IMG/VR virus record: IMGVR_UViG_3300044878_000031
Location: 32,001 to 96,000 of that record
Source: a virus
Reading direction: 5' to 3' (one strand)
Length of the DNA stretch: 64,000 bases
Of this stretch, positions 4,677 to 16,799 are shown piece by piece. Positions within the stretch are counted from its first letter, which is position 1. Each line of letters starts with the position of its first letter. Below the pieces are notes generated by a model. That model saw only the letters and a program-made list of their open reading frames with translations, was not told the DNA's origin and searched no databases. Position numbers and translations under genes: made by a program.

Positions 4677-5777
4677 ATGTACACCCTATTTAACGAACCG
4701 ATCTGGGGTACGAGTGGTGCTAGTGTTACTTTCCCCAAATACCTCCGGGCGACCCAAGGCCTGAGACAGAATCTGGAGAAGGTGGTTCAGTACAACCGTA
4801 CTTATCCAAGGGCTGTGGAGAGCAACCACTTTCTGGTAAAACTCCTGGCATCCCTTAACGTACCATTAAGCATGGATGTCAACATTTACCGGGACCGGGT
4901 GGAGGAGGTAGCGGAAGGCGTGAGTATGGCCTTCAACTTGACTTCTTCCTTATATAGAGGCCGAGTGTTCTCTCCGGGGATCTTCTACGGGAAAGGGTCT
5001 TCTGAGATCATCATTGCCCATGCTGAAGAATTCGACATCCGCAACATTGAGGATGAGTGGGAAGATTACCGCCCAGTGACTTTCCTGACTCACCCCAAGA
5101 CTGACCTAGGGATTGACTTGCCCTTGGGATTCCAGAACGGTAGCGAAGAAGGTTTCTCTGTCATTCTGGTAAACATTCCGATGTTGGCTTGCCAGTACCG
5201 GATGTGGCGTATCCGAGAGTACCGGGAGAACAATGAAGCACAACGCACCAAAATGCAGTTCGTGTCTTCGTATCCCCTGACCAACGCTCTGTACTCCCAA
5301 CTGGACATTGCGATCCTGAATCGTTTCCAGCGCATCTACCGGGGAGAACCTCGGGGTATGTCAATGCTGCGTAAGCCCTACACCCTGACTCGTTTGGAAC
5401 AGGAACTGGACTTTGGGTTAGACCAGTACGCGGAAGACTTGCAGAAACGCAACTACACCTTCGATCACGTCCTTAGCTATATTACAGGCGTCTCGAGTTG
5501 GACGATGCGTGATGCTATCCGTATTCCTCCGATGGCACCTACCCGGCAGGTTACTTGGGCTTTGGCCTTAGGTCGGGCTGAGCTGGTGAACTTCCTGCTC
5601 GACTGGAACATCGAGAACGACGTCAAGGCCAACAAAGGCTATTGCAACACGATCCAACTGGAGACTTCCCGGTTGCTCAATGACAGTATCATCAAGTCGA
5701 TGCTACCGATGTGGGCACAGAAACCCTGGGACGATCTCTTACGCAAGATCATCGCCAAAGCAAAAAGCGTCCGCTAG
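4677..5777 (+). CDS. Conserved Chimalliviridae core protein (phiKZ gp52-like), function unknown
   Basis: 366-aa ORF on the opposite strand between chimallin and DNA polymerase, the usual arrangement in this family. Confidence 0.7.
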   Translation: MYTLFNEPIWGTSGASVTFPKYLRATQGLRQNLEKVVQYNRTYPRAVESNHFLVKLLASLNVPLSMDVNIYRDRVEEVAEGVSMAFNLTSSLYRGRVFSPGIFYGKGSSEIIIAHAEEFDIRNIEDEWEDYRPVTFLTHPKTDLGIDLPLGFQNGSEEGFSVILVNIPMLACQYRMWRIREYRENNEAQRTKMQFVSSYPLTNALYSQLDIAILNRFQRIYRGEPRGMSMLRKPYTLTRLEQELDFGLDQYAEDLQKRNYTFDHVLSYITGVSSWTMRDAIRIPPMAPTRQVTWALALGRAELVNFLLDWNIENDVKANKGYCNTIQLETSRLLNDSIIKSMLPMWAQKPWDDLLRKIIAKAKSVR

Positions 5778-5779
5778 GG

Positions 5780-5825
5780 AAACAGGGAGGGGCTCGCGCC
5801 TCTCCCTGTTTCTCCTTATGCCGCA
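5780..5825. terminator. Bidirectional terminator between convergent genes
   Basis: GAAACAGGGAGGGG/CCTCTCCCTGTTTC inverted repeat followed by TTATGCCG. Confidence 0.75.
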
Positions 5826-8044
5826 ACAGACGCTGGAACAAAGTCCGAAACCAACTTAGTATTGTTGTCGTTAGACAAGAACACACCAAGGGATTCCAAA
5901 ATCAAATAGAACGGCCGGACAGTGGAGTACACGAGTTTACGGATGTTCATTGCAGACAGCACTTCAGTAGGCAGACCTACTTGCTCTACGACGTCCTTCG
6001 GCAACAACAGAGTAGTTGCGTTAGTCTTGTCGCGATAGGTAGTCATCAATTGCATCTTGATGTTTGGATCTTGGATACCCTCAATCCATTGGCCCAGTGC
6101 AGTTTTGTTAGGCAAGTCTAGGGAAACCTTGATTGCCGAGTACGGTGGTTTTGGAGCTTCACCGTATTTGCCGCTGAACACACGTTCCCACAACAGGTAG
6201 TGCTGGTACGGAGATTGACCTGGGTTAACGTAAGCACCTGCGTCTTTAACCGAAGCACGAGCCAAGTACAGGGATTCCCCACGCATAACCGACGCGACAA
6301 TGCCGTGTTCGATGTCTGCGATCTTCTGCATGATCGGAGTGATCTTGATCTTCTCACCAGCCATCACGCAATCCATTACCCCACACATCGTGGCTGTAAC
6401 TTCCTTCATGATGTTCGGAGGACAGTTCGAGTCTTTGAGGTAAACCCCTTTGATCTCTTCCTCCAGCTCGGTGAACACGTTACCTTCTTTGGCTGCCTTG
6501 TAGGCGTAGTAGTGCTTAGCCATCGAGGTCAGACTGAAGACAGAGAATGCAAACTCGTTCTTCATGGCCAGTACGTTGAGTTTCTCAGGGACTACGCCCA
6601 GAGTGGTCGACAACATAGCCAGTACGTGAATGATCGACTGAGTAGCCAGATAAACCATGGTGTAATCCACGGCAAACGACTCGGGACTGAAGTCCACCTT
6701 ACCGGTGTACCACTCTACCCAGTTCTGCACGGTGAAGATCGTGGAGTCTGTGTCGGAGGTAATAGCTACCTGACGCACCGAATCCCGAATCCATGCAATA
6801 GAAGCAGGCATGTTGTCTGTAACCCAGAACGCTTTGATCAACCACTGGTAATCGTTGAGTACCGAATGGATGTTCTTGACCGTAGCGCCAATCAGGCAGT
6901 AGTTGTGGGGGTTCTGTTCCAGCAACTTACCCAGGCCTAGGCCCGACAGTTCATCGGAACACAGCAAGCTTACAAACGCTTTGAGGTCGTTGTCCATTCC
7001 CTTGATGAAGGTCTTGGCTTCTTCCAGCTCAATCGGCACTGTAGCTTTCTGGGAGAGACGCGCCATAAAGACACGCATCGGTACATCGTTGTACTTCGCC
7101 AGATGCCACATGTCGCCTACGTAAGCAAACGCAGCACGCTCATGATCGTTCAACCCTTCTACCAGAGCACGGATCTCTTCCATCTGACGACGGTTGGTCC
7201 AGTAGTGTTGAGTCGAGTACGCAATCAGTTGCATGGTCTCGTCTACGGTTGGAGCACGGAATCCGTAGAGATCCATAGCCTTAGCGATCAAGTCGTAATC
7301 CACGTGACCGATAATGCTGACGATGTTGGCCTTCACTACGTCTGGTGCCCAGTAGTGACGGTTGCCTGCAAGGAACTTCTCGTTGTTAGCGTTACCCAAC
7401 GAAGTAGCTACCCGGCAAGTAGAAGTCAGACTGGAGTGTGCAGACTTGTTGTGGAGAATCGTGGAAGCCGACGCTTGCCCACCGGACAGACTGTTGTTCG
7501 CAATCTTGTACGTGGTCTGTTCGTTTTCCTTGAGGTCTTCCAGTTCTTCCATGGTTGCCGCTTGGCGGTTCATGAAACGAGCCTGAACTGTATCACCCGA
7601 TGCTAGGAACTCAGCCGCTTTCAGCTTGAACTCCTGACCAGCCATCTTGGCTTCCAGACCTTCGTGCTTTACTTTACCCCGACCGACGATGTTACCGGTG
7701 ATGTATTCGGAGAGTAGAGACGGCAGTACGTCTGGATGTTCGTAGACTGTCATGCTTGGAGCAAACAGCCAACGTTGTTCGAGGATGTCCTTCAAGTACT
7801 GAGTGAAGGTGGTTTCGTATTGTCCCCGATCCCCATTCTTTCCACGGTTAATACAGAGGAGAGTAGGGTCAGTGATTTCGAACTTGCCGCCTGGACCAGT
7901 AACCCGGAGAACGTAAGCCTTGCAGTCCTCTACGGGTTTACCGGTACGTCTGCTCAGGAACAGAGCCATATCCCGACGATAGTTACCCAATACGTCTAAG
8001 TCGCGTTTATACGCAGACGCTGGTTTAACAAAATGGTTTTCCAT
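5816..8044 (-). CDS. Family B-like DNA polymerase, polymerase subunit (phiKZ gp50-like)
   Basis: KIANNSLSG (motif B-like), SDTDS (motif C), KHY and IKGV motifs; no obvious exonuclease domain, as expected for the split phiKZ polymerase. Confidence 0.88.
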   Translation of the reverse strand: MENHFVKPASAYKRDLDVLGNYRRDMALFLSRRTGKPVEDCKAYVLRVTGPGGKFEITDPTLLCINRGKNGDRGQYETTFTQYLKDILEQRWLFAPSMTVYEHPDVLPSLLSEYITGNIVGRGKVKHEGLEAKMAGQEFKLKAAEFLASGDTVQARFMNRQAATMEELEDLKENEQTTYKIANNSLSGGQASASTILHNKSAHSSLTSTCRVATSLGNANNEKFLAGNRHYWAPDVVKANIVSIIGHVDYDLIAKAMDLYGFRAPTVDETMQLIAYSTQHYWTNRRQMEEIRALVEGLNDHERAAFAYVGDMWHLAKYNDVPMRVFMARLSQKATVPIELEEAKTFIKGMDNDLKAFVSLLCSDELSGLGLGKLLEQNPHNYCLIGATVKNIHSVLNDYQWLIKAFWVTDNMPASIAWIRDSVRQVAITSDTDSTIFTVQNWVEWYTGKVDFSPESFAVDYTMVYLATQSIIHVLAMLSTTLGVVPEKLNVLAMKNEFAFSVFSLTSMAKHYYAYKAAKEGNVFTELEEEIKGVYLKDSNCPPNIMKEVTATMCGVMDCVMAGEKIKITPIMQKIADIEHGIVASVMRGESLYLARASVKDAGAYVNPGQSPYQHYLLWERVFSGKYGEAPKPPYSAIKVSLDLPNKTALGQWIEGIQDPNIKMQLMTTYRDKTNATTLLLPKDVVEQVGLPTEVLSAMNIRKLVYSTVRPFYLILESLGVFLSNDNNTKLVSDFVPASVAA

Positions 8045-13515: not shown

Positions 13516-13601
13516 AAAAGGGTGCCTTCTCTCACGTCGGGACAGGGTTCTTTGTTTCCGGCGCAGATCCATCACTCATTGAGAGAGAAGACATAACAAC
13601 G

Positions 13602-13695
13602 TTGGGGGATCGACACGATAGGATTCGAACCTATGGACCGTAGCCAGCGCTTAGCGCTTGCCTTAAACCACTCAGCCACGCGTCGAAACCCCCAA
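13602..13695 (-). ncRNA. tRNA-like RNA with collapsed anticodon arm and extended acceptor stem
   Basis: Intact D arm and T arm (ATAGG-TTCGAAT-CCTAT); anticodon arm AGCGC-TAA-GCGCT; no CCA at the canonical position; outer TTGGGGG/CCCCCAA stem. Confidence 0.75.
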
Positions 13696-13816
13696 ACTCT
13701 GTGTACCACATTAGTCCTCCTAGTTCTGATTACCCTGCGCGTCAGGTCGGTCGTAACTAGGATGGGCGTGTACCGACGCCCCGTTTTACTTCTGTTCCCT
13801 AAGGAACCTTCTAATG

Positions 13817-13898
13817 TGCGGCCCTCGGCAAGATTCGAACTTGCGACCTTCACCGGACCGAAGTCCGACAACGTTCTAACCGACTGAACTACGAGGGC
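13817..13898 (-). ncRNA. tRNA-like RNA with a UUCG tetraloop in place of the anticodon loop
   Basis: Perfect acceptor GCCCTCG/CGAGGGC, canonical D and T arms; central arm TTGTCGGAC-TTCG-GTCCGGTGA; ends CGCA. Confidence 0.8.
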
Positions 13899-13906
13899 AT
13901 TACAAA

Positions 13907-13992
13907 TGGCGGAAGGATAGAGATTCGAACTCTAGGACCTGTTACAGTCGACGGTTTTCAAGACCGCTGCAATACCGCTATGCGACCCTTCC
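13907..13992 (-). tRNA. tRNA-Ser(UGA)
   Basis: Cloverleaf, loop CTTGAAA, long variable arm, GCCA end. Confidence 0.95.
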
Positions 13993-14501: not shown

Positions 14502-14572
14502 TTGCTTTATCGGGAATCGAACCCGAGTGAGCCGCCTGTGTGGCAGCCGTTCTACCATTGAACTATAAAGCG
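14502..14572 (-). tRNA. Atypical tRNA (nominal anticodon CAC, Val) or tRNA-like RNA
   Basis: Good D and T arms; anticodon loop CACACAG lacks U33; C1:A72 mismatch; no encoded CCA. Confidence 0.65.
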
Positions 14573-14851: not shown

Positions 14852-15490
14852 TTAAACAGGGCGACGGTTGTAGTTGACGCGCTTAACTTCAAGCTCGACG
14901 AACAGCGCAATCGGATACCCTTCAGGCAGTTGTACAGCAACCTTGGAGTTTGTGGTCTCTTGGTTAACCGTAATGCTGAATGGAATTTTAACGACGCTAC
15001 CGAGAGTGCCGTTGAGGTGAATGTCTCGACCGATCTTTACAGACCGTGAGAAAGTCGCTGCAACTTCAACATCGTCTTTGGTAACGATGCGGAGAACCTT
15101 GACTGAGTCAATGCTGTCCGTGATGTCCACAGCAACGCCACTGGCTCCTACCAGACCGAACAGGCTCTTGGCATCACCGTCTTTCAACGGGAGGCGTACA
15201 TTGGAGACGTCAGTGTTGATGGAAGGTTCCGTCAGGATCTCCCAGTCTTTACCCAGTTGATCCGATTGAGCCGGATGCCACGGGGTGAAAACGTTCTGAG
15301 CTGTCTTCATGCCAACCCACGGTGCCAGTGTTGGACACTCGTTCTCACCAGGCTTGTAGCCCAGGGTTGCACAACCTACATCGTAATTACCCGGAGTGAC
15401 TAACACCAACCACATGTCTTTGCCATTCCAACTTGGGCGAGTAACACGCTTGCCTTCATGCAATGCCGCAATTGCTGCACCGAAGTCCAT
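14852..15490 (-). CDS. DUF2829 / Tad2-like anti-Thoeris sponge domain fused to an extra C-terminal domain
   Basis: MDFGAAIAALHEGKRVTRPSWNGKDMWL ... PWHPAQSDQLGKDWEI matches the DUF2829 pattern; start ATG 15490 with AAGGA RBS. Confidence 0.82.
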   Translation of the reverse strand: MDFGAAIAALHEGKRVTRPSWNGKDMWLVLVTPGNYDVGCATLGYKPGENECPTLAPWVGMKTAQNVFTPWHPAQSDQLGKDWEILTEPSINTDVSNVRLPLKDGDAKSLFGLVGASGVAVDITDSIDSVKVLRIVTKDDVEVAATFSRSVKIGRDIHLNGTLGSVVKIPFSITVNQETTNSKVAVQLPEGYPIALFVELEVKRVNYNRRPV

Positions 15491-15500
15491 GGGTAATTCC

Positions 15501-15662
15501 TTAACAAACGAGGATAGGGACTGGAATGCCTTTCTCGGCACAGACGCGCTTTAAAGCTTCGTCTGCATCTTTCCAGCGCTGTAGTCGGGCGAGGCTTTGC
15601 TCACGAGACTGCGGAGTAATCTTGGAACGATCCAGATCACGTAAGCGAAAGACCGGAACCAT
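15501..15662 (-). CDS. Small hypothetical protein (53 aa, MVPVFRLRDLDRSK...)
   Basis: AGGAGG RBS; fills the gap between tRNA-Ser and the Tad2-like gene; below the ORF-track size cutoff. Confidence 0.65.
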   Translation of the reverse strand: MVPVFRLRDLDRSKITPQSREQSLARLQRWKDADEALKRVCAEKGIPVPILVC

Positions 15663-16669: not shown

Positions 16670-16799
16670 TGGCCCCGAGGGGTGGACTCGAACCACCGAC
16701 CTCCCGCTGGCAAGCGTGTTTAAACGTTCTCGCCACGTTAGTAGCTATCAACGTAACCGCATGTCTAACGAGTGTTCTAACCGACTGAACTACCCAAGG
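16670..16799 (-). ncRNA. tRNA-like RNA with a ~53-nt insertion in the anticodon loop
   Basis: Canonical D arm, T arm (GGTGG-TTCGAGT-CCACC) and GCCA end; stem CTCGTT/AGCGGG closes a large structured insert. Confidence 0.78.

Follow-up and report, generated by a model that had tools for sequence, protein, structure and literature searches.

Non-decoding tRNA shapes are found among Y RNAs, mascRNA, the TMERs of herpesviruses and the TLSs of plant viruses, and the phage RNA analyzed here would add a case from bacterial viruses. In the tRNA-miRNA (TMER) units of MHV68, tRNA-like units release the RNAs located downstream of them. In the tRNA scaffolds that Ponchon and Dardel engineered for recombinant RNA, arbitrary structured cargo reportedly takes the place of the anticodon arm, and the tRNA frame is said to confer processing and stability. 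To our knowledge, a dedicated CCA-less handle has no bacterial or phage example. The mascRNA at the 3' end of MALAT1 is a tRNA-like processing handle that defines this end (PMC8128908). In M. smegmatis, YrlA is an RNase P substrate and acquires CCA; the Ro-binding helix of YrlA carries the motif GNCGAAN0-1G (PMC4201824). Such YrlA-type Y RNAs (RF02553), which occur in bacteria and mycobacteriophages, join a non-decoding tRNA-like domain to a second conserved RNA module. HDV-like theta ribozymes are structured RNAs that lie in cis directly downstream of CCA-less phage tRNA shapes, and their upstream partner is a functional (suppressor) tRNA (PMC10879173).

The locus compared here with these systems belongs to an IMG/VR virus record of 112 kb that is estimated to be 41% complete; the window, that is, the whole stretch of this record that was analyzed, measures 64,000 nt. 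It encodes a PhuZ-type tubulin and a divergent family B DNA polymerase, and the virus is therefore regarded as a jumbo phage of the nucleus-forming type. A tRNA operon on the minus strand holds a tRNA-shaped module that is directly followed by a second structured RNA (Table 1). Very probably, this module is the non-decoding part of a bipartite phage RNA consisting of the module, a 2-nt linker and a core with a four-way junction. The arrangement resembles that of the YrlA-type RNAs; however, YrlA is permuted, has a closed acceptor, ends in a Ro-binding stem and adjoins rsr, whereas the acceptor of the phage module is open. With mascRNA and the TMERs it has in common that a non-decoding tRNA shape abuts another RNA and that the anticodon region is free to vary, but in these eukaryotic and herpesviral systems tRNA-processing cuts define the end of the neighbor, whereas cleavage of the phage unit is proposed. 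The position behind a CCA-less phage tRNA shape is shared with the theta ribozymes, from which the core differs in fold and sequence, and Rfam gave no HDV match for it. Four relatives of the module (L003, L011, L015 and L023) resemble the loaded form of the tRNA scaffolds and the module of the window resembles the empty one, but the phage unit is natural and its conserved cargo, the core, is attached 3' and not in the anticodon arm.

A tRNA-shaped module without a decoding loop

The minus strand reads exactly as a preliminary description of the element had it, namely as a cloverleaf with intact acceptor, D and T arms and a 9-bp arm capped by UUCG. Like a canonical tRNA (RF00005), the module combines a 7-bp acceptor, a D arm with G18 G19, a T arm with UUCGAAU and the tertiary pairs, and it lies in a phage tRNA operon behind an AU-rich leader ending in U-1. 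The elbow nucleotides that belong to a tRNA cloverleaf are intact (U8-A14, G15-C48, G53-C61, the GG of the D loop and the T loop), and the remaining positions comprise U8 A9, G26 and the variable loop AGGUC. Unlike a canonical tRNA, it has a 22-nt tetraloop arm and no CCA, and its 3' side runs into a structured RNA. The Rfam tRNA model recognizes the module with an E value of 1.2e-7 over the 64-kb window, skipping the anticodon arm as a 20-nt insert, and ARAGORN assigns it a two-base anticodon.

Table 1. Positions of the bipartite RNA, its parts and related features in the window
Feature	Position	Strand	Remarks
tRNA operon	~16800 to 13430	minus	ARAGORN, Rfam
Paralogous tRNA-shaped gene with rod	16673-16799, CCA 16670-16672	minus	Rfam tRNA 35.9 bits
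Canonical tRNA-Ser(UGA), encoded CCA	13907..13992	minus	8 nt upstream of the module
tRNA-shaped module, 79 nt	13820..13898	minus	Rfam RF00005 49.7 bits; ARAGORN tRNA-???
Acceptor stem, 7 Watson-Crick pairs	13892-13898 / 13821-13827	minus	read directly
D arm GUUC-AGUCGGUUA-GAAC	13873-13889	minus	read directly
Anticodon arm UUGUCGGAC-UUCG-GUCCGGUGA, 22 nt	13850-13871	minus	9 pairs, 3 of them G-U
Anticodon-arm helix strands	13863-13871 with 13850-13858	minus	loop UUCG 13859-13862
T arm GCAAG-UUCGAAU-CUUGC	13828-13844	minus	read directly
Discriminator C	13820	minus	no CCA encoded after it
Linker G	13819	minus	column 1, invariant in the core alignment (25 sequences)
Core RNA, 116 nt, four-way junction	13704..13819	minus	covariance model R1 122.5 bits
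Core P1, 8 bp	13811-13818 with 13707-13714	minus	closing helix

The 5-bp anticodon stem and 7-nt loop (U33, purine 37) of a decoding tRNA are missing from the module, which is non-decoding in shape. No symmetric register of the arm yields a 7-nt loop; the earlier view that the arm lacks a decoding loop is supported. The cloverleaf with the 9-bp arm has a folding energy of -28.3 kcal/mol, at most 0.3 kcal/mol from the MFE; a 7-bp stem with an 8-nt loop in place of this arm would be 4.9 kcal/mol less favorable, and a 5-bp stem with a 12-nt loop 11.8 kcal/mol less favorable. It is extremely improbable that the module is a decaying tRNA pseudogene, or else a functional tRNA that decodes as Arg-UCG or reads quadruplets through an 8-nt loop. 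Its location in a tRNA cluster, the UCG in the loop region and the anticodon calls that ARAGORN forces on some relatives would suit such readings, but the 8-nt loop, besides its energetic cost, lengthens the arm by two pairs, CCA is absent, and the orthologues carry unrelated "anticodons" or inserts of 40-70 nt within a frame that compensatory changes have preserved.

Each of the seven canonical tRNAs in the cluster has an encoded CCA, whereas the tRNA-shaped module has none. Its trailer, GCACAUUAG, is not CCA (G-C-A-C-A-U-U-A-G) and contributes P1 of the core. The letters of the trailing CGCA in the preliminary description stand, but their reading has to be mended: C is the discriminator, G the linker and C-A the beginning of the P1 helix, and since this C-A pairs in core P1, the tail is not a degenerate CCA. 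The neighboring tRNA-Ser(UGA) is also present in L003, L015, L023 and the metagenome contig RCUP01001392. A megablast of the tRNA cluster against deposited phages returned short tRNA matches only, and the exact pattern of the D and T arms had no match in IMG/VR; a relaxed UUCG-arm pattern was found in one metagenome contig and nowhere in IMG/VR. The tRNA operon also contains an ORF with a Tad2-like (Thoeris anti-defence 2) domain (14852-15541, minus strand, E 1e-21).

A conserved four-way-junction core behind the module

The core consists of the closing helix P1, the hairpins P2 and P3, an 8-bp P4 that encloses the 4-bp hairpin P5, and a 3' tail G-U-A. P1 follows the module directly, the discriminator C13820 and the linker G13819 forming a 2-nt linker that recurs in all aligned modules except that of L003, where it is one base short. 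In an alignment of 25 core sequences, 54 of the 119 columns are invariant and concentrated in the junctions; the linker G and the first P1 pair (2-115, C-G) are among the positions that do not vary. The proposed structure is paired in 98.5% of the cells, compared to 74.9% in shuffles, both sides change in 18 of the 27 pairs, and the covariation score of 0.64 (vs 0.16) is lost when the partners are slid. The covariance model R1, which was built from this alignment and run on the window, detects a single copy (E 3.9e-33), with a runner-up at 11 bits. A search of Rfam at E≤10 with the 226-nt stretch 13680-13905 reported the tRNA only and nothing for the core, which therefore belongs to no known family, and a search of the literature found no description of a module-plus-core RNA. 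The bipartite unit thus links a tRNA shape to a conserved and structurally well-supported RNA.

The invariant junctions, the invariant G at +1 and the place directly 3' of a CCA-less tRNA shape could point to a new self-cleaving ribozyme that would cut its own 5' edge (C13820/G13819) and trim the CCA-less tRNA-like RNA. A precedent would be the theta ribozymes, whose associated phage tRNAs are without CCA in 95.5% of the cases (PMC10879173). Such an activity is nevertheless very unlikely: no ribozyme family of Rfam, whether HDV-like, hatchet or other, matches at E≤10, the topology, in which the 5' and 3' ends are paired in P1 and a four-way junction is formed, is unlike HDV, and because the upstream RNA cannot decode, its maturation by a ribozyme would be without obvious value.

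Two other features of the core were considered and rejected. A T-box-like pairing of its 3' GGYA tail with an NCCA end conflicts with the first G, which pairs with the invariant C of P1, and with the base 3' of the GG, which does not covary with the discriminator. An SD-like arrangement on the 3' side, at 13711 (AGGAGG-ACUA-AUG, stretch 13695-13716, minus strand), resembles a ribosome-binding site with a start codon but is probably due to chance, because relatives share neither the SD-like run nor the AUG.

Distribution of the unit and coupling of its two parts

The core was found in 26 phage modules, which belong to jumbo phages and to phages of 42-94 kb. A degenerate pattern of its most conserved part identified 23 IMG/VR loci, located on jumbo contigs of 238-317 kb and in the 42-94 kb phages, and a looser pattern added one further IMG/VR locus. 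BLAST detected the core in six deposited phages, namely the Pseudomonas phages D6 and Psa21, TPWB-08 and three Vibrio phages. The first and stricter of these patterns had no match in 185,579 prokaryote species genomes (one genome each), so that no prophage or cellular context was found from which a function could be borrowed. In 25 of the 26 modules read, an element with acceptor and T arm abuts the core and ends 2 nt before P1; the three Vibrio phages have a 9-bp hairpin only, where other modules have the tRNA shape.

L003, the only close IMG/VR relative found through PhuZ (67% identical), shows the same order as the window: tRNA-Ser(UGA), a short spacer, the tRNA-shaped element and ~115 nt that are roughly 90% identical. 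Double (paired) changes separate the two in the acceptor and D stems, and the arm of L003 is a 68-nt insert. In several phages of 42-58 kb the module is the sole tRNA-like gene of the locus, and in L035 a distance of 11 nt separates its first base from the end of an upstream sigma-70-like promoter (TTGACA-17-TAATAT); the unit is therefore autonomous and starts with the tRNA shape. Behind the core, at a distance of 6-12 nt, a tRNA or tRNA-like gene is often present. The unit is located beside terminase and HNH genes in the smaller phages and in tRNA clusters in the jumbo phages, and no conserved protein neighbor was found across the carriers.

Two observations on smaller phages may be added. 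TPWB-08-like phages of 45-58 kb (L007, L009, L010, L012, L016 and L022) keep acceptor and T arm, while a conserved core of ~90 nt, which holds GGCCGGUAGGACCGG and GGAGUAAUUACCC, replaces the D and anticodon region; tRNA finders miss these modules. In the 42-kb phage L030, the bipartite RNA adjoins the HNH-terminase genes, and a portal protein fused to a C-terminal Acb1 (anti-CBASS) domain is encoded at 5279-7090 on the plus strand.

Selection on the tRNA frame and freedom of the anticodon arm

Pairing in the tRNA frame was counted over the cells of the acceptor, D and T stems in the 16 members with a full D arm. After bulges in four members had been removed by hand, and with D6 still partly mis-registered, 245 of the 256 stem cells pair (95.7%) and compensatory changes occur at all 16 stem positions, whereas none of 2000 shuffles reached 245 (mean 161). 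The 16 frames may come from different tRNAs, in which case part of the "compensatory change" would be replacement and not drift. The anticodon arms of the family measure 13, 17, 22-30, 40-44 or 66-72 nt, and the identities that ARAGORN gives to the members are unrelated (Asp, Gly, Ile, Thr, "???"); the shared anticodon of a decoding tRNA is thus missing among the orthologues. Judged from these alignments, selection retains the acceptor stem and T arm and, as a rule, the D arm and elbow as well. Because tRNA finders label members as Asp, Gly, Ile, Thr or "tRNA-OTHER", which is the annotation of the tRNA-shaped part in D6, phage tRNA inventories and codon-usage arguments are contaminated.

The arm of the module in the window aligns with the basal helix of the 66-72-nt arms in its nearest relatives, L015, L003, L011 and L023, whose arms continue into a distal rod that contains conserved motifs and ends in a covarying hairpin. 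About 49 nt of this rod are absent from the window, and UUCG sits at the junction. By this comparison, the most plausible origin of the UUCG cap is closure of the scar that remained after a distal domain had been deleted: in the lineage of the window, the distal rod of ~49 nt would have been lost and the stump closed by the stable tetraloop. The module would then represent a natural deletion experiment, in which the distal anticodon-arm domain appears dispensable, and the acceptor, T arm, elbow and 2-nt junction do not. RCUP01001392, which matches at 94.7% identity over 14.4 kb, also carries the capped stub, with one pair-preserving change (A-U to G-U) in the 79 nt, compared to nine changes in the adjacent tRNA-Ser (Fisher p 0.019). 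The persistence of the stub in this contig, the maintenance of the frame by compensatory changes in orthologues and the conservation of the element across the phage family agree with the original impression that it is selected rather than decayed.

A different fate befell the proposal, made in the same description, of a nuclease-resistant decoy. As a stable tRNA-shaped decoy or sponge for a tRNA-targeting defence enzyme of the host, the module would profit from its intact L-shape determinants and very stable arm, the Tad2-like anti-defence ORF lies in the same tRNA cluster, and phage tRNAs are known to counter tRNA-cleaving defences (PMC11555353). The comparative data make this role very improbable. 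Anticodon nucleases would be offered no anticodon loop, and since the region exposed to them ranges in length from 13 to 72 nt across the family, the arm holds no common target site. For enzymes that act on 3' ends there is no encoded CCA, unlike in the canonical tRNAs of the cluster, the cap is better accounted for as a closing scar, and the obligate fusion, in many lineages of phages, with a conserved RNA of 116 nt would be left unexplained.

A paralogous tRNA-shaped gene in the same operon (Table 1) shares its D arm with the module and has a rod of ~70 nt in place of the anticodon loop, which aligns with the rods of the core-linked modules L023 and L011; its acceptor contains one U-C mismatch. 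No core follows this paralog, and R1 finds no second core in the window. A relative that is 86% complete has the fused copy only. From sequence comparison, the pair looks like the outcome of a duplication followed by division of labor.

Proposed processing of the bipartite RNA

On balance, the data are best explained by a non-decoding tRNA-shaped 5' module that serves a two-part RNA as a CCA-less cleavage handle. The acceptor, T arm, D arm and elbow would be the parts read by tRNA-processing and tRNA-binding machinery, and the anticodon arm would be a passive strut that phages can shorten, lengthen or load with extra domains. The module itself would act as a built-in CCA-less substrate for tRNA-processing enzymes. 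RNase P is predicted to cut at G13898 and to set the 5' end of the module, and an RNase Z-type cut after the discriminator C13820 would free the module as a 79-nt tRNA-like RNA and, in the same step, leave the core with its exact 5' end, G13819. Where a tRNA lies 6-12 nt past the core, a further RNase P cut could set the core's 3' side. RNase Z is blocked by CCA, and a precise cut after N73 therefore needs a CCA-less frame. Genes for RNase Z-like or CCA-adding enzymes are missing from all five phage records checked, and host enzymes are therefore assumed.

That the module is indeed cut off, instead of being a permanently attached domain, is put forward tentatively. In principle, the core could equally be released by a normal upstream tRNA together with RNase E, the Vibrio phages replace the tRNA shape with a 9-bp hairpin, and the fixed 2-nt linker and the kept D arm and elbow fit a permanently attached domain equally well. 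In the latter case, module and core would remain covalently linked in an adaptor RNA of ~195 nt with the tRNA shape as one of its arms, the core binding one partner and the L-shape recruiting a tRNA-recognizing protein, in analogy to YrlA. The invariance of the linker and of the first P1 pair is compatible with such an adaptor, as is the retention of the D arm and of every elbow nucleotide, given that RNase P and RNase Z require no more than a minihelix. Furthermore, the 195-nt stretch of module and core folds as two independent domains (z -2.4). This possibility is nonetheless rather unlikely. RF02553 has no match at E≤10 in 13680-13905, and the rod-bearing paralog of the window stands without a core and with its own CCA. 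TROVE (PF05731), and with it an Rsr gene, is absent from the five records G000 (only 41% complete), G001, D6, Psa21 and TPWB-08, whereas the control genomes were positive, and there is no conserved protein neighbor.

An identity of the unit with YrlA/Ro was rejected, given that there is no TROVE gene and no Rfam match and that the motif is not conserved: the core stretch at the position of the YrlA motif reads ACGANCGACC, and the motif fits some members only.

Returning to the cleavage handle, a more general picture is conceivable, if less secure. The undescribed RNA of ~115 nt might depend, in unrelated phage lineages, on a dedicated CCA-less non-decoding tRNA cassette, either as a natural scaffold for exact ends made by host RNase P and RNase Z or as the docking arm of a new adaptor or ribozyme RNA, and the UUCG copy might be its minimal, cargo-free form, from which the essential parts could then be read.

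Further unusual tRNA shapes

Additional tRNA shapes were observed in the window and its relatives. The stretch 14502-14572 (minus strand), called "tRNA-Val(cac)" by ARAGORN, lacks CCA and has an anticodon stem of 6-7 bp with a loop of ~5 nt and a mismatch at the first acceptor pair; it probably represents a further tRNA shape that does not decode, and it has a counterpart in L011 (1894-1962). L003 (15939-16016) and L011 (3084-3161) contain elements named "tRNA-Arg(tcg)" by ARAGORN with the loop region CCC-UUCG-UGGG, which may be further UUCG-capped tRNA shapes; Rfam did not report a tRNA for the L003 element at E≤0.1. A type II (Ser-like) tRNA shape at 13607-13686 (minus strand) has the anticodon arm AGCGC-UAA-GCGCU with a 3-nt loop, no CCA, and an acceptor lengthened by UUGGGGG/CCCCCAA. 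The 95%-identical RCUP01001392 lacks this element altogether (13599-13701), and a recent insertion or deletion is therefore indicated.
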